This document shows positions 44,556-53,005 of a DNA stretch of 64,000 nt, one piece after another (position 1 is the first letter of the stretch; the number at the start of each line of letters is the position of its first letter). The translations under genes and the position numbers were made by a program. The notes beneath the pieces are model-generated. The model searched no databases. It saw only the letters and a list, made by a program, of their open reading frames with translations, and was not told the DNA's origin. Source of the stretch: a bacterium (GTDB taxonomy: Bacteria > Patescibacteriota > Minisyncoccia > Minisyncoccales > CG1-02-41-26). The DNA lies in contig JAUVXX010000002.1 of assembly GCA_030603395.1 (NCBI GenBank), positions 15,807 through 79,806 of the forward strand, in the 5' to 3' direction.

Positions 44556-44664
44556 AACTGGCGGCGACCTACTTTCGCCCTAAAGGACTATCATCGGCCC
44601 TGGGGTATTTCACTTCCGTGTTCGGAATGGGAACGGGTGGGACAACCCCGGCATTACCGCCAAA
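44556..44664 (-). rRNA. rrf: 5S ribosomal RNA
   Basis: Reverse complement reads UUUGGCGGUAAUGCC..CCCACCCGUUCCCAUUCCGAACACGGAAGUGAAA..GGUCGCCGCCAGUU, alignable by eye to bacterial 5S. Confidence 0.9.
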
Positions 44665-44695: not shown

Positions 44696-44722
44696 AATGA
44701 TGATGATTGATTACCGGCTAAG
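44696..44722 (-). other. 3' strand of the ~27-bp 23S processing stem (pairs with 48093-48120)
   Basis: CUUAGCCGGUAAUCAAUCAUCAUCAUU is complementary to AAUGAUGAUGCAUUGAUUACCGGCUAAG with one bulge. This is RNase III-type precursor stem geometry. Confidence 0.7.
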
Positions 44723-44993
44723 AAGTTTGATCGATTAGTATCCCTCAGCTCAAGGCGTTACCGCCCTTCCACTTGGGACCTATCAAGGTCGTCATCTTCG
44801 ACCGATCTCAACGAGTCCTAATCTTGAGGTGGGCTTCGCACTTAGATGCTTTCAGTGCTTATCCCGAACCAACTTAGCTACCCAGCAATGCTCCTGGTGG
44901 AACAGCTGGTAGACCAGAGGTTAACTCCGGAAGGTCCTCTCGTACTATTCCGGACTCCTCTCAAGACTCAGCGCCTGCGGTAGATAGGGACCA

Positions 44994-45028
<35 letters not shown>

Positions 45029-45659
45029 ACTTTTTAATTGGCGAACAGCCAAACCCTTGGGACCTTTTCCAGCCCCAGGATAAGTTGAGCCGACATCGAG
45101 GTGTCGAACAGGATCGTCGATGGGAACTCTCGGATCCTACTAACCTGTTATCCCCGGGGTAACTTTTATCTGATTATCTCCCCCAATTCTATGAATTGAG
45201 GTCGGTTCACTAAGTTCTGGTTTCCCAACTGCGCGACATATCCGTCTTGCAGTAAAGTCGGCTTTTCCCTTTGCGGTATCACTCCGATTTCCATCCGGAG
45301 TTAGCCGACCTTTAAACGCCTCCGTTACCTTTTAGGAGGCAAGCGCCCCACTTAAACTACCCATTAGACACTGTTTCCACCGATAAGGCAGATTAGAACC
45401 AAGATTTCAGAAGGGTGGTGTTTCATTGGTGACTCCGCCCCGACCGAAATCGGGACATCAACATCTCCCACCTACACTACGCATCCAAAGTCAAAGCTCA
45501 ATATCTAACTATAGTAAAGCTCCCGGGGTCTTTCCGTCTAGCCGCAGGTAAAGGGCATCTTCACCCCTATTGCATTTTCACCGGGCACCTGGTTGAGACA
45601 GTCCCCTAGTCGTGAAGCCTTTCATGCAGGCCGTAACTTACACGGCAAGGGATTACGCT

Positions 45660-45912
45660 CAATAATGTTAAATCCTTAATGGAATTCTCTTTGTCGCCAA
45701 AGAGCTCGGACCATATCTTCACCGTCTTAATTTGTAATTATTGACGGGTCCGGCGTATGGCCTCTGAGGATTCCGAGTACATAACTTTTTATGTGCTCGG
45801 TCTTTCCTGCTGATTGTCTGCACCGGACGCTTTTTTACTCTTATCAGAGTAGCGCCGGATACACCAGAGTTTCCAGCATATAGCCGGATTTTATTAAAGC
45901 AACGCGCTGATT
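45660..45912 (-). mobile_element. ORF-less candidate group I intron in 23S rDNA at E. coli site L1931
   Basis: The exon alignment breaks between ..GUUAAAGU and AGCGUAAUCC (E. coli ..CCUAAGGU|AGCGAAAUUCC). The 5' exon ends in U and the insert ends in G. The internal guide GCUUUAA pairs with exon UUAAAGU (P1 with a U.G pair). A GNRA-capped hairpin CUCUUUG-GCGA-CAAAGAG is present. Confidence 0.65.
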
Positions 45913-47665
45913 ACTTTAACACGGTCAGAGTTACCGCGGACGTTCACTGGAAGCTTAACTCGGTTAGCCAGTCGATATATCGATATCGAGAGACCGCCAA
46001 GCTTGACACTCCAGTACTGGTCAGGCCTCAGCCCCTATACCTCCTATTACTAGTTAAGCAGGGACCTATGTTTTTGATAAACAGTCGCTAGGGGGACGTT
46101 TGTTGCAGCCCCTGAGCCCTTGCGGGCCGGGGCAGTCCTTATTGCGAACTTACGGACGCTTTTTTGCCGAGTTCCTTAACCAGGTTTCACCCGTTCACCT
46201 TGGCACTCTTACGCCAGCCTACCTGTGTCGGTTTACGGTACGGACCCTCCACCCTTTTAAATTTCTCCGAGGCTTTTCCAGGCAGAGTGCTCAACTGAGT
46301 TCATCCCGCCGAGGCGGGACTTCCCGCCAGCTCTTGGAAATCCTTAAGCTAGCGACGAAAATCCAATAATTCGCCCAGCCTACTACTCTGCGTCACCTCA
46401 TTGAAAAAGGTGAAAGGGGGCCGGAATATTAACCGGCTGTCCATCCCTCCCTACAACTTCTTGTAGGGGGTTAGGGCCGCCTAACCCTTGGCTGATGGTC
46501 ATTGCCAAGGAAACCTTAGGCTTTCGGTGGGCAGGACTTTCACCTGCCTTGTGGTTACTCATGCCAACATTCTCACTCCCTATCGCTCCACCCCAACGTT
46601 GCCGTGGGGCTTCAGTGCAATAGAGACGCTCCCCTACCACTCGACATATCGAAATATCGAAATATCGAATCCACATCTTCGGTACCGAGCTTGAGCCCCC
46701 TAAATCTTCGGCGCAGACCCTCTCAGGAAGTAAGCTGTTACGCACTTTTTAAAGGATAGCTGCTTCTAAGCTAACCTTCTCACTATTAAAGAGAATCCAC
46801 CTCCTTTAAACACTTAGCTCGAATTTTGGGACCTTAGATGGTGATCTGGGCTGTTTCCCTTTTGACTACGGAACTTAGCTTCCGCAGTCTGACTCCTCGT
46901 TTAAATTTTCCAGTATTCGGAGTTTAGTTGGAGTACCTGGATAAAATCCAAGGTATTCCATCTAGTGCTCTACCCCTGGAAAAGAATTTGACGAGGGCTA
47001 GCCCTAAAGCTATTTCGGGGAGAACCAGCTATTACCAAGCTCGTTTAGCTTTTTACTTCTTACCACAGTTCATCCCAGAGCGTTGAACGGCTCAAGGGTT
47101 CGGGCCTCCTCCGGCGTTTCCGCTGGATTCACCCTGACCATGGCAAGCTCGCTTGGCTTCGGGTCTCGAGCATATAGCCAAAAACGCGCTTTTAACGCTC
47201 GCTTTCGCTATGCTTTCGGGGCAAAACCCCTTAAACAAGCTATGTGCTCGAACTCGTTGGCTCGTTCTGCAAAAAGCACGCCGTCACCAAAACAGATAAC
47301 AAGTTATCTGCTTCGGCTCCGACTCTTTGTAAGCAAATGGTTTCAGGTTCTATTTCACCGCCCTCACCGGGCTACTTTTCACCTTTCCCTCACGGCACTA
47401 GTTCACTATAGGTGAGCGGGTAGTATTTAGCTTTAGCTGATAGTTCAGCCTGCTTCCCTCAGGGCTTTCATTTCCTGAGGTACTCAAGAAAGACAGCAAG
47501 GAGCATGAAGTCGTTTTCGTCTACGGGACTATCACCCTCTATGGTTGTCCTTTCCAGGACATTTAACTAACGAAACTTCACCAAAATGCTCTCCCTCAGT
47601 AAGTCCAGACCTTTCTGCAAAAACAGAAAGAGCTGGGCTCCCGACGCTATCCCCTTACAACCCCC

Positions 47666-47827
47666 ATCGCTCGCACCTCGCTATGCTCGGCACTCGCTCC
47701 AGTTTATAGTGTATAGTGTATAGTTTGTAGAAAATTGAAAACAAATTCTACTCACTACCAACTACTCACTACTCACTAATCACTACTCACTAAAGTTTGT
47801 GTCGAACGCAGTGAGGCACGAACGATA
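47666..47827 (-). repeat. 162-nt expansion segment in 23S domain I built from tandem heptamers
   Basis: It replaces a ~17-nt hairpin between ..CUCAAACC (bacterial consensus ..CCCAAACC) and GGGGUUGUA... It contains six TACTCAC units (47750-47791, plus strand) and about 3.5 TATAGTG units (47705-47730). The base stem is AUCGUUCGUGCCUC / GAGGUGCGAGCGAU. Confidence 0.7.
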
Positions 47828-48263
47828 GGTTTGAGCTTTTCCCTTTTCGCTCGCCGCTACTTGGGGAATAAACATTTTTGTCTTTTCCTCCGGGTACTGA
47901 GATGTTTCACTTTCCCGGGTTCGCTGCCCCGTCACTCGACAGGGCTGTTCGCGCTTATCACGCGAACGGGTTTCCCCATTCGGAAATCCCCGGATCAAAG
48001 GTTGCTAAGCACCTCCCCGAGGCTTATCGCAGCCACGCCACGTCCTTCATCGCCTCCCGCTCCCGAGGCATCCACCATCTGCTCATAATAATCTTAGCCG
48101 GTAATCAATGCATCATCATTTATTAATTTTTAAAGAACATCATTCATCTCTGGAATTTAAAAACTGCTTCTCAGAGAAGCAGCAAAAACCTATAAACTAA
48201 AACTATGGCTTTTAGCCGCTTCCTTCATATAATATCTTTCCAAAATTTCTCATACTGTTTGTA

Positions 48264-48291
48264 ATTTTAGCAAAATAAAAAGCTTTGTCAA
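48264..48291 (-). promoter_or_regulatory. dedicated promoter for 23S-5S: TTGACA-16-TAAAAT
   Basis: -35 at 48286-48291 and -10 at 48264-48269 (minus strand), about 145 nt upstream of the 23S processing stem. Confidence 0.6.
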
Positions 48292-48334
48292 CCCCCCACC
48301 ACTCTAAAAACGATTCCCAAAGTGACGGGGGGTT
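48290..48334 (-). terminator. 14-bp GC-rich hairpin after the upstream membrane-protein gene (terminator-like)
   Basis: AACCCCCCGUCACU / AGUGGUGGGGGGUU (two G.U pairs), 22 nt after the stop codon. The U-tract is displaced by ~8 nt, so function is uncertain. Confidence 0.45.
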
Positions 48335-48356
48335 AATTTCTGCTTTTGAATTCTTA

Positions 48357-49034
48357 TTACTCTCCAAATTTGCCTCTGAAATTCTCTAAAACATCTCTGG
48401 CTAAATCTTTTCCTCCAAGACCAAAAGCAATGGAGCAACTGATGACTATCAATGCTACAAATCCTGTCACCAAAATCTGAACAATATCTTTGGCGACGCC
48501 CAGTTGACTCAAGATAGCCAAAATGGCGAAAATCCAAATAGCCCACCTGACAATGCTCCCTATCAACTTAACATAACTTACGTTCATCTTGCCCACAATC
48601 GCTCTGACCAGCTTTTCTGAAATATCAGCAATAATTACTGCCACCACAAAGATAGCTGCTGCCACCACTAAGTTCGGCAGCCAACCAACAATAGCTCTCA
48701 AAAAGATGGCAAATTGGGTAAGCCCCAGAATCTCAACGGCAGCCAACAGAAAGACAATTATCAGAACCCATTTAACAATCCCTCCGATAAAATCCGACAT
48801 TTTCATCCGGAAATCTGCCTTCTGGAGGGTTTCGTCCCACTTGCTTTTTTCAAAAATGCGGTCAACCCTTAACTTCTTTAGAATTTCAGCCACCAGCTTG
48901 CCAATCCAAACGGATATAAACCAACCGACCACGAAAATAATTATGGCTCCTACTATTTTGGGAATAAAGCCCAGGAACCCTTGCCAGAGACTTTGCAAAG
49001 CTTGCCACGTAACGGTTGTCCAATCTTGAACCAT
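48357..49034 (-). CDS. membrane protein with repeated conserved-TM-helix modules (MscS N-terminal-like)
   Basis: 225 aa, 5-6 TM segments, with repeated IVGAIIIFVVGW / VVAAAIFVVAVIIA type helices. Confidence 0.55.
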   Translation of the reverse strand: MVQDWTTVTWQALQSLWQGFLGFIPKIVGAIIIFVVGWFISVWIGKLVAEILKKLRVDRIFEKSKWDETLQKADFRMKMSDFIGGIVKWVLIIVFLLAAVEILGLTQFAIFLRAIVGWLPNLVVAAAIFVVAVIIADISEKLVRAIVGKMNVSYVKLIGSIVRWAIWIFAILAILSQLGVAKDIVQILVTGFVALIVISCSIAFGLGGKDLARDVLENFRGKFGE

Positions 49035-49097
49035 ATTAATTATTTAAAAAATATGTTCTTGTGCGACCTTTAAGACTGTACGATAAAATATTATTTC

Positions 49098-49124
49098 ATT
49101 ATACCCCAAAAGAACCCCTGTCAA
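49098..49124 (-). promoter_or_regulatory. promoter-like TTGACA-15-TATAAT overlapping the 17-bp repeated motif
   Basis: -35 at 49119-49124 and -10 at 49098-49103 (minus strand). The 15-nt spacer is short. Confidence 0.4.
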
Positions 49125-49190
49125 CTGTGGATAACTTCAAGCGAGCAAAACGAGCGAGAACCCCGCCGTTCTTCAGAAGGAGCTGGGTGT

Positions 49191-49793
49191 TCACATTACT
49201 ATTTTATTTTTAATTAAAAACTCTTTTACAATTTCAAAGATTCTCTGATGACCTTTTGAATTCGGATGTAAACCATCATCCAGCATTGAGTTAGTTAGTT
49301 TATCATATATTAAGATTACTGGAATGTTATTTTTCTTTGCGATTCGATGTATGATTGCATTGTATTCCCTAATATTTTTGTTGTAGTAGTACTCTGTCCT
49401 GTGCCAGGGAATTGGACACACTTTTGACTCGTCAACACGTAATATTTCTGCAAAGAGCAGTTTATCTGTATGCTTCTTAGCTAATTTGATAAGGCTCGCT
49501 ACGTTCTTCTCAAAGCGTTCTGGAGGCACAAAATAATCATTTGTAGTTGTAGTATGACGAGAATCATTTGTTCCAAGATGAAAGATAACAACTTCTGGTT
49601 CTATTGATTCTAAATCTGTTTTTACTCGCTTTACAATATCATCAGTTGAATCTCCTGAAACACAGCGATTGTAAACAGCAATTTCATTGTCCTTGTTGAA
49701 GAAGAAAACTTTTAGCCGATTTACCCAACCACCCATTTTATAGTCATAATATCCTGCACTTATACTACCTCCAAAAACTAAGATTCGTGCCAT
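49191..49793 (-). CDS. SGNH/GDSL-family hydrolase
   Basis: Block I FGGSISAG, block III GTNDS, block V DGLHPN. Confidence 0.75.
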   Translation of the reverse strand: MARILVFGGSISAGYYDYKMGGWVNRLKVFFFNKDNEIAVYNRCVSGDSTDDIVKRVKTDLESIEPEVVIFHLGTNDSRHTTTTNDYFVPPERFEKNVASLIKLAKKHTDKLLFAEILRVDESKVCPIPWHRTEYYYNKNIREYNAIIHRIAKKNNIPVILIYDKLTNSMLDDGLHPNSKGHQRIFEIVKEFLIKNKIVM

Positions 49794-49834
49794 AAGAATT
49801 AGTTAAATTTTACAGGGATCTGACCCCTGTAAGG

Positions 49835-50098
49835 TTATTTTTTGGCTCGGTCATATTTTATCTTTAAGCTGATAAGTATTATTACCATTATCGTCTCAAC
49901 TGTTGAAAAAATCAAAAGCGGCATGATTGTATTTTTTGCTGCGTAAATGATGTATAAAAACAAGCCGGCCAAAAGCACAAACGTCCATAGAAACGATAAA
50001 TCTTTGGCGGACTTGGTTTTAAATGTTTTTATTAGTTGGGGCAATAAGGCTGAGGCAATTATGAATCCACCTGCATACCCTATAAATTCCAAAACCAT
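49835..50098 (-). CDS. PQ-loop / SemiSWEET-type 3-TM transporter
   Basis: 87 aa, three TM helices, PQ motif (ALLPQLIKTFKTKS). Confidence 0.7.
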   Translation of the reverse strand: MVLEFIGYAGGFIIASALLPQLIKTFKTKSAKDLSFLWTFVLLAGLFLYIIYAAKNTIMPLLIFSTVETIMVIILISLKIKYDRAKK

Positions 50099-50134
50099 AG
50101 CGCTATTGATTAAAAAGGTATATCATTTCAATTT

Positions 50135-50206
50135 TGGACCGTGCCAGACTCGAACTGGCGATCTCCTCATTGCAAATGAGGTGTTCTACCACTGAACTAA
50201 CGGCCC
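50135..50206 (-). tRNA. tRNA-Ala (anticodon UGC)
   Basis: GGGCCGU..ACGGUCCA acceptor with the G3:U70 identity pair, anticodon loop UUUGCAA, T loop UUCGAGU. Confidence 0.9.
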
Positions 50207-50215
50207 ACATTCCGG

Positions 50216-50289
50216 TGGGCACGGTAGGATTCGAACCTACGACCTCACGATTATCAGTCGTGTGCTCTAACCAACTGAGCTACGTGCCC
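50216..50289 (-). tRNA. tRNA-Ile (anticodon GAU)
   Basis: GGGCACG..CGUGCCCA acceptor, anticodon loop CUGAUAA, T loop UUCGAAU. Confidence 0.9.
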
Positions 50290-50611
50290 ATATTTCATTA
50301 CATTATCATAATTCTTTCCCTTTGAAAAGTCCCACAAACGAAAAACTCCCCTAAGGGAGTTTTCCTTTACTATTTTTGGTTTCTCTAAGTTGCTCCGAAA
50401 GTCGAGTTTTGAGGTGATTCGACCAACACCCTGAAAGTTAAAGAGAGAATTCTCACTCTTCAACTTTCGTCAACCAAATAAAAAAAGAAATGTTCCATCG
50501 ACAGCTTCCGCTACCGATGCCTTGTTACGACTTCGTCCTGATTACTGAGCCCACCTTAGGTCCCCAAAAGGAGCACTTCGGGTGTTCCCAGCTTTCCTGA
50601 CGTGACGGGCG

Positions 50612-51452
50612 AATGTTCTCTGGAAACTCAGAGTTGACGTTCCCACCGTACGTGCGGATTTCCCGCATACGGCGAGCTCTAATGCATTTTTTGTTTAAGC
50701 TTATACAAGCTTCTTAATCCTACTTTTGCAAGATGTCTCCCTTTGCCAATTTCTCTCATTATCTCAGAAAAAATTTTAAAATCTTTTCTCCTTGAAACTA
50801 ATCTTGGCCGATGTTTCTTAAAAAATGGAATAATAATCTTCTCTATATCTCTTCGATTTCCCACTTCATAACGATAACAATCTTTATGATTCTTCCGGCT
50901 ATCTTTCTGAAAATATACATTTCCACAACCAAAAGATTTTTTCAACCGATAAAGTATTTCTTTATCGGTTTCTTGAAGTCTCAAGTAAAATCTCGGTTCG
51001 GCTCTTACTCTTCGTTTAACTTTCTTCTTTTCATCGGGATTACGAATATAAACTGTAAAACTTCCTTCGCCATCTACTAGTCCTAAAATATATTCAGGGT
51101 TTAACATAAATACATTAGAGTGGATCCTTCCCCGCTAAACTTTTTATTTAGCCGGTACTATGATCCAGCTGACTTCTGACGCTGCGTCAGTTTCATTATA
51201 CAGCGTCAGACCTCCCCGGGTCAATACATAAACTATTCCCAACATCCCAAATTGAGCCAAGAAACGACCTTCCCCACGCTCACCACCCATTCATGGGTCG
51301 GCCAGCTCTTAAAAATTTGGGCTACTGTTTGCTTTCGGACCCTCCGCCATTTGTGTCACCACAAATGACTGTCCTTCAGCTTTACTCCGCTAACAGTCTG
51401 CGGAGAAAGAGATTTTAACTCTTTAGCTTATGTATCTGCCGGGCGCGTTTAT
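50612..51452 (-). mobile_element. intervening sequence in 16S rDNA carrying a homing-endonuclease gene
   Basis: The conserved string GUAC(A/U)CAC|CGCCCGUC (E. coli 1392-1407) is split. The flanks resume exactly, with about 840 bp between them. Boundaries are accurate to within a few nt. Confidence 0.7.
50679..51107 (-). CDS. LAGLIDADG homing endonuclease (single-motif type)
   Basis: 142 aa with YILGLVDGEGSF near the N-terminus. Located inside the 16S insertion. Confidence 0.85.
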   Translation of the reverse strand: MLNPEYILGLVDGEGSFTVYIRNPDEKKKVKRRVRAEPRFYLRLQETDKEILYRLKKSFGCGNVYFQKDSRKNHKDCYRYEVGNRRDIEKIIIPFFKKHRPRLVSRRKDFKIFSEIMREIGKGRHLAKVGLRSLYKLKQKMH

Positions 51453-52904
51453 CTGTGAGTACAAGAGACAGTGACTTATTCATCGCGGCGTAGCTGATCC
51501 GCGATTACTAGCGATTCCAGCTTCACGAGGTCGAGTTGCAGACCCCGATCCGGACTGAGACTGGCTTTGATGGGATTAGCTCCACGTTACCGTTTGGCAA
51601 CCCATTGTACCAGCCATTGTACCACGTGTGCTGCCCAGGGCATAAGGGCCATGCGGATTTGGCGTCGTCCTCGCCTTCCTCCCAGTTATCCCGGGCAGTC
51701 CCCTATAACAAATAAAACATAGGGTGAGGGTTACGCAGGTTTCCCCATTTAAGGGAGCATTTCACAACACCTACTGACGACAACCATGCAGCACCTGTAC
51801 CAAGTGCCTTGCGGACTCCCAAGTTTCCTCGGGATTTCACCTGGCATGTCAAGCCCTGGTAAGGTTCTTCGCTTACCGTCGAATTAAGCCACGTGGTCCA
51901 CCGCTTGTGTGCCTCCCCGTCTATTCCTTTGAGTTTCAACGTTGCCGTCGTACTTCCCAGGCGGGACGCTTAACGGGTTACCTTCGCCGGTGAAAGGGTC
52001 GACACTTCCACCAGCCAGCGTCCATCGTTTACAGCGTGGAATACGCAGGTATCTAATCTGCTTCTCTCCCCACGCTTTCGCCAATCAGCGTCAGGGTCGC
52101 CCCAGCCAGCTGCCTTCGCTTTTGGTGTTCCAGCCGATATCAACGGATTTCACCCCTACACCGGCTGTTCCGCTGGCCTCTAACGCCCTCTAGAAAAGAA
52201 GTATCTCTAGCGCTCTTGAGGTTAAGCCCCAAGAATTTGACCAAAGACTTTCTTAACCGCCTTAAGGCTCTTTACGCCCAATAAATCCGGATAATGCTCG
52301 GGGCACTCGTATTACCGCCGCTGCTGGCACGAGTTTAGCGGCCCCTTATTCAACCGGTACTGTCACCCGAAGGTTCATCCCGGTTAAAAGTTCTTTACAC
52401 CCCGAAGGGCTTCATCGAACACGCGGCGTCGCTCGGTCAGGCTTGCGCCCATTGCCGAAGATTCTCGACTGCTGCCTCCCGTAGGAGTGGGAACCGTGTC
52501 TCAGTTTCCCTGTTGGGGAACACACTCTCATGCCCCCTACCCGTCATCGCCTTGGTGAGCCTTTACCTCACCAACAAGCTGATAGGCCGCGGACTCTTCC
52601 TCAAGCGCCGGAGCTTTACTCTTGCGAGACCATCTAGTATTAGTCCCACTTTCGCGGGATTATGCTAGACTTGAGGGTAAATATCCACGTGTTACTAACC
52701 CGTTCGCCACTGTCCCTCACCAAAATTTGGTGTGGGACCGTACGACTTGCATGCCTTATCCACGCCGCCAGCATTCATCCTGAGCCAGGATCAAACTCTC
52801 AAAAAAAATAGTATTCGAAGCAACTCAGAAAAACCAAAGGTTTTTCTTCGTTAATATTCTGGACACTTTTTAACGGAAACCGAGGACGATTTCCTAAAGC
52901 GCCC

Positions 52905-52930: not shown

Positions 52931-52977
52931 CTCAAAAAAAACAATTATTCAATTTGAAAGAACTCGTCTAATTTTTA

Positions 52978-53005
52978 ATTCTACTTACTTAATTCTTAAT
53001 GTCAA
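52978..53005 (-). promoter_or_regulatory. candidate 16S promoter TTGACA-16-TAGAAT
   Basis: -35 at 53000-53005 and -10 at 52978-52983 (minus strand), about 175 nt upstream of the 16S 5' end and immediately after tRNA-Thr. Confidence 0.5.

Follow-up and report, generated by a model that had tools for sequence, protein, structure and literature searches.

A conserved short open reading frame and terminator-like hairpin in the 23S rRNA leader of Patescibacteria: a candidate attenuator in an anciently split rRNA locus

Control of ribosomal RNA (rRNA) synthesis is known mainly from Escherichia coli and Bacillus subtilis, where it acts at initiation, through ppGpp (guanosine tetraphosphate) and the initiating nucleoside triphosphates, and through Nus-factor antitermination, for which the rrn leaders of both species carry boxB-boxA-boxC signals. 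Leader-peptide attenuation is known from the trp, his and leu operons and from B. subtilis bmrCD: a short open reading frame (ORF) lies directly behind the promoter, an intrinsic terminator lies between ORF and regulated gene, and an antiterminator pairing that excludes the terminator overlaps the ORF. According to the accessible portion of Brewer et al. (bioRxiv 10.1101/705046), Patescibacteria are among the clades whose rRNA genes are exclusively unlinked; in Borrelia burgdorferi, the accessible portion of a further study (BMC Microbiol 2011, PMC3037291) gives 16S with tRNA-Ala, tRNA-Ile alone, and 23S-5S as the units. Here we analyzed a 64,000-nucleotide (nt) stretch of DNA (GCA_030603395.1, contig JAUVXX010000002.1, positions 15,807-79,806; hereafter the window, to which all coordinates refer) holding, on its minus strand, the single rRNA locus of a Nealsonbacteria-like member of the Patescibacteria, and in particular an element of ~110 nt between the 23S promoter and a boxA-like motif in the 23S leader. 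Our best reading is that the locus is a mosaic of long standing, made up of three or more transcription units, in which a leader-peptide attenuator controls transcription of 23S-5S; for these claims taken jointly, the signals found in the DNA leave us evenly divided between belief and doubt.

The minus-strand order, with RNA genes called by Rfam and ARAGORN, is promoter, 16S (bearing an insertion with a LAGLIDADG ORF), tRNA-Ile, tRNA-Ala, a PQ-loop gene, an SGNH hydrolase gene, the membrane-protein gene MSTM, promoter, 23S and 5S. The 16S 3′ end (50495) and the 23S 5′ end (48099) are about 2395 nt apart, the same distance of more than 1500 base pairs (bp) that marks the unlinked genes of Brewer et al. 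(10.1101/705046). Here, however, the genes stay near each other and their order is conserved; what separates them is tRNA-Ile, tRNA-Ala, a single conserved protein gene and cargo that varies. The accessible portion of that preprint does not describe interval content, promoters or leaders. Borrelia likewise keeps 16S apart from 23S-5S in separate units, but it belongs to another lineage and has tandem 23S-5S copies, and the accessible portion of its description (PMC3037291) mentions neither a leader ORF nor an attenuator. That the genes are split is nothing new for this phylum and would be ordinary by itself, whereas the linkage of MSTM to 23S, the cargo hot spot beside the spacer tRNAs and the putative 23S-specific switch appear to be undescribed.

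We compared the MSTM-23S spacers of ten genomes and then 61 leaders, counting as a promoter any TTGAC(A/T) and TAnnnT separated by 16-18 nt within 420 nt upstream of 23S. Such a promoter was found in 53 of the 61 leaders; that of the window (48264-48291, minus strand) reads TTGACA-16-TAAAAT with an extended TG and 11 of 12 matches. The leaders share one layout: an ATG that follows the -10 element by 4-18 nt and opens an ORF of 9-26 codons, segment 1 with AAGCGG(C/T), a variable stretch of 30-50 nt, segment 2 with (A/G)CCGCTT, a loop of 3-10 nt, segment 3 with AAGCGG, and 5-7 T, beyond which come a boxA-like motif, a processing stem and 23S. In the window the mini-ORF MRNFGKILYEGSG plus TAA (13 codons; 48212-48253, minus strand) begins 10 nt after the -10 element, and its last codons contain segment 1, GGAAGCGGC (48215-48223, minus strand), which can pair with segment 2 as an antiterminator. 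Segment 2, GCTGCTTCT, a loop and segment 3, AGAAGCAG(T), make up a terminator-like hairpin (48159-48183, minus strand) followed by TTTTT. Segments 1 and 3 are identical in sequence and each is complementary to segment 2, so that the leader bears the signature of mutually exclusive pairing. Of the 53 leaders with a promoter, 50 have this hairpin with its T-run, and it begins 61-116 nt past the -10 element (for L099 a position of 151 was called in error). The T-run is nearly invariant in its length of 5-7; the stretch from segment 1 to segment 2 shows little conservation of sequence or length. The boxA-like motif that follows in the window, TGTTCTTTAAAAA (48127-48139, minus strand), has no mismatch to the pattern that we took to be the boxA consensus; this pattern turns up in the window about as often as chance predicts (4 matches, 3.3 expected), and it recurs at the same place in relatives.

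The position of the ORF is far from random. We scored an ORF when an ATG opened at least six codons and the stop codon fell between 8 nt before and 9 nt after segment 1, and found one in 37 of the 45 leaders with a usable segment 1, against 6.7 ± 2.3 (maximum 14) with shuffled upstream sequence (n = 1000). In most leaders the first base of the stop codon lies 4-13 nt past the beginning of segment 1, and TAA (19), TAG (11) and TGA (7) are all used at this one place, as would be expected of a genuine stop codon. The encoded peptides end in Ser-Gly in 11 cases and in Arg-Pro in 5 of the 37, the latter in one clade. With the ATG only ~1-15 nt from the expected transcription start, the leader messenger RNA (mRNA) would be nearly leaderless. 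Translation of such an ORF without a Shine-Dalgarno site is plausible, since the 16S 3′ tail (50495-50510) reads GGAACATTTCTTT rather than GGATCACCTCCTT and lacks the CCTCC anti-Shine-Dalgarno sequence, and since Shine-Dalgarno-like motifs are not enriched, standing upstream of 7 of 53 genes compared with 6 and 7 of 53 at control positions. CCTCC is likewise absent from all 16 distinct 16S tails (the window and 15 relatives, L004-L039), and the lineage seems to have given up Shine-Dalgarno pairing.

Both helices are visible in the variation among leaders. We aligned 45 of the 50 terminator-bearing leaders with MAFFT (L024, L034, L035, L040 and L054 were left out for length, and L099 was given hand-corrected coordinates), taking columns from the L017 row. 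In the terminator helix 89.6% of cells were paired, six pairs showed double changes, and the score was reached by none of 500 shuffles; in the antiterminator helix 80.3% of cells were paired, the score was reached by 2 of 500 shuffles, and the pair following GCGG occurs as CG (17), UG (10) and UA (8). For folding we used 46 leaders, excluding the mis-called L099, L064, L013 and L033. Before segment 3 is added, at least 60% of the terminator 5′ arm is paired upstream in 45 of the 46 leaders (mean paired fraction 0.87 vs. 0.53 with shuffled upstream sequence). At full length the minimum-energy fold is the antiterminator in 30 leaders and the terminator in 15, the two states lying 0-7 kcal/mol apart. 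The leader of the window adopts the antiterminator fold when unconstrained (-25.7 kcal/mol), and the terminator fold when the ORF and ~10 nt past its stop codon are blocked.

The element is tied to 23S. A covariance model built from it (R1) returned one match in its own genome, the 23S leader; neither R1 nor inspection of the 16S leader revealed a mini-ORF/terminator element there. R1 matched 57 of 151 evenly drawn genomes of the class, once each except for one genome with two matches, and 29 of 29 fetched matches lie 63-361 nt upstream of a same-strand 23S 5′ end, with MSTM no more than 600 nt upstream in 19. Among matches that had not been used to build R1, 25 of 27 carry an ORF of 11-17 codons ending on segment 1. 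In a phylum sample 16 of 151 genomes were matched, 12 of them outside the class of the window; the seven matches fetched all precede 23S, each with a 13-14-codon ORF that ends, by eye, near the GCGG segment, so that all 36 fetched matches stand upstream of 23S. These genome fractions are lower bounds, because only 36 of 61 related metagenome-assembled genomes had any 23S assembled. Rfam 15 has no family for the element, and Rfam matches at E up to 10 over 48050-50140 were limited to chance-level small nucleolar RNA and small RNA families. A literature search, which did not extend to supplements, found no leader ORF or attenuator before an rRNA gene.

Segment 1 also resembles what we take to be the domain IV motif of signal recognition particle (SRP) RNA, and we considered whether the leader RNA is a divergent SRP RNA; this was rejected, as the segment is the 5′ rather than the 3′ hairpin strand and neither an SRP54 M-domain nor a GTPase domain was matched in the genome. 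Neither SRP RNA (RF00169, RF01854) nor the M-domain (PF02978) nor the GTPase domain (PF00448, common to Ffh and FtsY) was detected in this genome, which is rated 98% complete. Across 25 relatives PF00448 gave only five weak matches of P-loop length, while 14 of 14 control genomes were positive; either this order has lost the SRP pathway, or the components have become too divergent for these profiles to detect.

On our reading, Unit 1 would start at the 16S promoter, with boxA directly behind it, and would yield 16S, tRNA-Ile and tRNA-Ala and, probably by read-through, the accessory PQ-loop and SGNH genes. A separate consensus promoter would drive MSTM as Unit 2, and a third promoter would drive 23S-5S as Unit 3, with the candidate attenuator between promoter and boxA. 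The near-leaderless ORF ends on segment 1, and segments 1 and 3 would compete for segment 2. With no translating ribosome, segments 1 and 2 would pair once segment 2 emerges, the terminator would be blocked, and polymerase would continue into boxA and 23S-5S; a ribosome at the stop codon would mask segment 1, allowing segments 2 and 3 to form the hairpin before the T-run and so to stop transcription. Translating ribosomes would thereby exert negative feedback on the synthesis of large-subunit rRNA. An attenuator of this kind would sense translation as such, because no run of one regulatory codon was found in the 37 ORFs or in the independent set. We tentatively suggest, while leaning somewhat against it, that Patescibacteria thereby possess a ribosome-feedback device for the large subunit, in which idle ribosomes on the mini-ORF terminate 23S-5S and a shortage of ribosome capacity lets the antiterminator form and 23S-5S be made.

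Several observations weigh against the attenuator. The ORF was not scored in 8 of the 45 leaders; at least three of these misses are errors of the segment finder, since L013, L038 and L099 have the ORF by eye, and L011, L035 and L054 are true exceptions or variants. The peptides are rich in Lys, Arg and Asn and not conserved in sequence, and their recurrent Ser-Gly and Arg-Pro ends are confounded with the conserved RNA segment beneath them. Strong sequence conservation in all three segments keeps covariation modest, and the shuffle controls overstate its significance because the sequences are related; RNAalifold on 16 leaders gave the terminator helix only, the variable middle aligning poorly. 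The 15 leaders whose full-length fold favors the terminator also speak against the predicted default state. No RNA contig of the metatranscriptome run X20 lies on 48182-48369, a gap that is uninformative either way. Finally, one would hardly expect a terminator ahead of the RNA that the cell transcribes most heavily.

The main rival holds that promoter, ORF and hairpin are a free-standing micropeptide gene or a small RNA of ~100 nt, with 23S supplied by leaky read-through or by transcripts from upstream, and with the pairing of segments 1 and 2 forming a long stabilizing hairpin and no switch. A consensus promoter, an ORF and a strong hairpin with T-run at a fixed distance are what such a gene would present, the long hairpin is indeed the minimum-energy fold in the window, and no Rfam match contradicts the idea. 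We nonetheless judge it unlikely: a free-standing gene need not lie, once per genome and on the same strand, 63-361 nt upstream of 23S in all 36 fetched cases, nor does it account for the identity of segments 1 and 3 and their shared complementarity to segment 2; its peptide is not conserved, and between the hairpin and 23S we saw boxA and the processing stem and no other promoter. A structural role for the hairpin, as a boxB-like signal or an aid to folding or Nus assembly, with an untranslated ORF and an incidental T-run, would fit the succession of hairpin and boxA-like motif found in most leaders, which resembles the boxB-boxA-boxC order of rrn leaders. Yet the 16S leader of the same genome has boxA with neither hairpin nor ORF, the T-run hardly varies, and the ORF, its length and its stop position, with three stop codons in use, are conserved far beyond chance, which makes this explanation quite improbable.

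Conservation of the GCGG segments beyond what pairing demands, as for a binding site, together with two folds close in energy, could also point to a switch set by a trans-acting factor. A ribosomal protein of the large subunit, say, or a small ligand would bind segment 1 or the long hairpin, much as in ribosomal-protein leaders or riboswitches, and the ORF would be secondary. An aptamer would hardly tolerate the poor conservation between segments 1 and 2; no Rfam family matches, the fixed stop position is left unexplained, and we find such a factor hard to credit. The last alternative is one long transcript from the 16S promoter carrying the protein genes as passengers, with a minor 23S promoter, or else an assembly chimera. 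There is no strong terminator after tRNA-Ala, the PQ-loop gene or the SGNH gene, and boxA in the 16S leader could carry polymerase through. Against this alternative stand the near-consensus promoter before 23S in 53 of the 61 leaders, the separate processing stems of 16S and 23S, the hairpins, several with T-runs, that precede the 23S promoter in most of nine relatives, and the same gene order in six independent genomes. Among public Logan contigs (at least 90% likeness; every run held under half of the sampled words) no single contig covers the whole 2.8 kilobases (kb), and none lies on 49874-50061 in the PQ-loop gene, a gap that is uninformative; but records 1 and 2 of run X1 connect 23S start, leader and promoter with the 3′ end of MSTM, and the MSTM and SGNH regions are partly bridged. 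Nothing in the contig comparison suggests a chimera, and we consider this last alternative very improbable in either version.

The 16S promoter (52978-53005, minus strand; TTGACA-16-TAGAAT), found by site scan, is directly followed by the boxA-like GTTCTTTCAAA (52953-52963, minus strand). The 16S gene (50495-52806, minus strand) consists of an Rfam match (52806-51405) and a 3′ exon, identified by AAGTCGTAACAAGGCA at 50533-50518 and reaching to about 50495; between them lies an insertion of ~800-850 nt with the LAGLIDADG ORF (51107-50679; PF00961 in Pfam), in which Rfam called no group I intron, whereas it called one in 23S (45943-45687). A near-consensus TTGACC-18-TATAAT stands at 51195-51224 within the insertion, ~90 nt upstream of the LAGLIDADG ORF. 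On the minus strand follow tRNA-Ile (GAT; 50214-50289) and tRNA-Ala (TGC; 50134-50207), both called by Rfam and ARAGORN, and, farther on, the Rfam-called 23S (3386 nt; 44714-48099) and 5S (44556-44664), the latter followed by a terminator-like hairpin at 44503-44487 (site scan). The genome, 678 kb long on 7 contigs, carries a single 16S gene and a single 23S gene. The 5′ strand of the 23S processing stem (48091-48122, minus strand) pairs with 44724-44694 in a predicted duplex of ~30 bp at -44.2 kcal/mol, far below the -9.1 ± 2.8 kcal/mol obtained with shuffled 3′ flanks. For 16S the 3′ strand (50375-50400, minus strand) pairs with ~52838-52813 and the stem closes before tRNA-Ile; its 25-bp core was read from the structure, and the energy of the whole flanks is not distinct from shuffles. 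Both predicted duplexes are of the long kind cut by RNase III.

A sequence-only reading of this DNA had proposed the gene order, which the Rfam, ARAGORN and Pfam calls reproduce, and an unlinked gap of ~2.4 kb, which agrees with our distance. Its claim that 23S-5S has its own promoter is upheld by the site in the window and by the pattern in the other leaders, and that of a separate 23S processing stem by the predicted duplex. A GC-rich hairpin of 13 bp, which it had placed before the 23S promoter, does follow MSTM (48290-48334, minus strand) but is not separate from the promoter, overlapping the -35 element by 2 nt; a hairpin occupies this position in most of the nine relatives, and in several it comes with a T-run. 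The sequence-only reading thus identified the split, the 23S promoter and the stem; it overlooked the hairpin at 48183-48159, which lies within the 23S leader and downstream of the promoter, and with it the candidate switch, and the three protein genes do not form a single unit, as the third gene, MSTM, has a consensus promoter of its own.

The split is natural, old and ancestral. Among 60 relatives, six had 16S and 23S on one contig, and we fetched and mapped their intervals; all six have a gap of 2.8-9 kb in the same order, S2, EF-Ts, 16S, tRNA-Ile, tRNA-Ala, MSTM, 23S, 5S, MreC, so that the synteny comparison proposed in the sequence-only reading came out in favor of the split. The cargo varies (pilin-like proteins, a Nudix-like protein, a methyltransferase, rubrerythrin, serpin and others) and occupies three slots, 16S/tRNA-Ile, tRNA-Ile/tRNA-Ala and tRNA-Ala/MSTM. 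The attachment of both spacer tRNAs to 16S, also proposed from the sequence, thus holds for this genome, but relatives carry cargo between 16S and tRNA-Ile and between the tRNAs. In L004 (interval positions 414-2057) and L005 (393-1790) the slot between the tRNAs holds two prepilin-like genes (N-terminal KGFTLIELLVVI...), each adjoining an ORF for a small membrane protein. Contigs of the public runs also vary at the level of strains: an X1 contig matches 48835-49138 with 2 differences and continues with 760 nt unlike the window, and an X2 contig has 49035-49159 replaced.

The PQ-loop and SGNH genes are accessory genes inserted just after tRNA-Ala. The first (49835-50098, minus strand) encodes a SemiSWEET-like protein of 87 amino acids (aa) with a PF04193 match (45.3 bits, cut-off 22), its score for NF037968 SemiSWEET_2 being 49.2, under the cut-off of 80. 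The second (49191-49793, minus strand) encodes a predicted SGNH/GDSL hydrolase of 200 aa matching PF13472 over profile positions 1-178 of 178 (88.2 bits, cut-off 32.9), and a weak terminator-like site lies downstream of it (49167-49153). Homologues were found in 6 and 3 of the 60 relatives, respectively, at 21-40% identity, on contigs other than those carrying detected rRNA genes. The scan found no promoter- or terminator-like site in the 35 nt between tRNA-Ala and the PQ-loop ATG, in accordance with the short gap without visible signals that had been noted from the sequence; promoter-like sites inside the PQ-loop gene (9 of 12 matches) were dismissed as chance, 17 being found against 12.8 ± 4.0 expected. 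It is plausible that the PQ-loop gene rides on the 16S transcript. We count for such read-through the signal-free gap, contigs of run X3 that fuse the start of the SGNH gene directly to the tRNA-Ala 3′ end, and L004 and L005, where tRNA-Ala lies beyond the cargo and the first cargo ORF begins 9-11 nt after tRNA-Ile, so that co-transcription of protein genes with the 16S-tRNA precursor is hard to avoid there. The PQ-loop cassette (35-nt leader, gene and 3′ hairpin; 49807-50133, minus strand) ends in a hairpin of 9-12 bp (49836-49806) with a poor T-tail on the minus strand. The cassette is polymorphic for presence and absence: the X3 contigs join 49806 to 50135, skipping exactly 49807-50134, and AAAT stands at each end of the skipped piece.

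MSTM (48357-49034, minus strand) encodes a membrane protein of 225 aa with two PF05552 TM-helix repeats (73.5 bits). Profile matches are limited to these repeats, with no full MscS-type channel domain; NF033912 gave 93.1, below its cut-off of 100, over profile positions 177-365 only. The closest named relatives are from Candidatus Nealsonbacteria and other Parcubacteria metagenome-assembled genomes. In the window and in nine relatives, MSTM is the gene immediately upstream of 23S; no MSTM was found ahead of 23S in G042 or G031. Scanning species-representative genomes with an MSTM alignment gave 80 loci from many Parcubacteria lineages (Nealsonbacteria, Wildermuthbacteria, Kaiserbacteria, Nomurabacteria, Moranbacteria, Colwellbacteria and others of such names), of which 47 have a same-strand 23S 5′ end downstream, 33 of them within 800 nt. 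Of the other 33 loci, 8 have less than 900 nt of downstream sequence, and 25 have at least 1 kb and no 23S start.

The promoter region of MSTM (49098-49134, minus strand) comprises TTATCCACA (49134-49126), TTGACA (49124-49119), a 15-nt spacer and TATAAT (49103-49098). Both hexamers are perfect, but the promoter had been overlooked in the sequence-only reading, and the site scan missed it because its spacer is 15 nt. The DnaA-box-like TTATCCACA recurs 25-40 nt upstream of the MSTM -10 element, exactly in 5 of 10 genomes and with one mismatch in 2 more. We rejected it as a marker of a replication origin: GTTATCCACA has only six copies genome-wide, which are scattered, and the one ahead of MSTM therefore marks no origin cluster. 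A further motif, AAGGTCG (49060-49067 in the window), lies 25-35 nt before the MSTM start codon and is exact in 9 of 10 genomes. In the metatranscriptome run X20, two contigs (~96% alike, depth 8-9) cover 48563-49082, most of MSTM, and end at 49082, a few nt past the start predicted from TATAAT; they hint weakly that a related strain expresses MSTM from the gene's own promoter, although carried-over DNA is a possible source.

If the attenuator is real, it would explain how subunits are balanced where 16S and 23S are transcribed apart. A switch of mini-ORF and terminator on 23S only would offer a concrete and testable mechanism for setting ribosome number in ultra-small Patescibacteria with a single operon, and the element can be studied outside its uncultured host. 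The 16S-23S interval is at the same time an insertion hot spot for accessory genes beside the spacer tRNAs, which may borrow rRNA-level transcription, and one membrane-protein gene, MSTM, has been kept linked to 23S across much of the phylum.

Among described systems, the rrn antitermination leader is matched by the boxA-like motifs before both 23S (48139-48127) and 16S (52963-52953) and by the hairpin upstream of the 23S boxA; unlike an rrn leader, the 23S leader adds to that hairpin a T-run, a competing upstream partner and an ORF, none of which the 16S leader has. The TnaC peptide ends in Arg-Pro. The Arg-Pro-stop ends in one clade (5 of 37) recall TnaC-type stop-stalling peptides, as does a stop position that would decide downstream transcription (accessible portion of PMC8429421). 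The likeness lies in these two features, and TnaC acts through Rho, whereas here an intrinsic terminator is predicted and the commoner end is Ser-Gly-stop. The attenuators of trp, his and leu, and translation-sensing ones such as that of B. subtilis bmrCD (PMC4191407), are like the 23S leader in having a promoter-proximal ORF that runs over the first alternative segment and an intrinsic terminator, here predicted, before the gene; the antiterminator pairing predicted to exclude that terminator likewise overlaps the ORF. The 23S leader differs from them in that its product is rRNA rather than mRNA, in having three segments and no regulatory codon run, in its near-leaderless mRNA within a lineage that seems to lack Shine-Dalgarno pairing, and in a predicted logic by which translation leads to termination; if this is correct, 23S would be the first rRNA gene known to be under leader-peptide attenuation.

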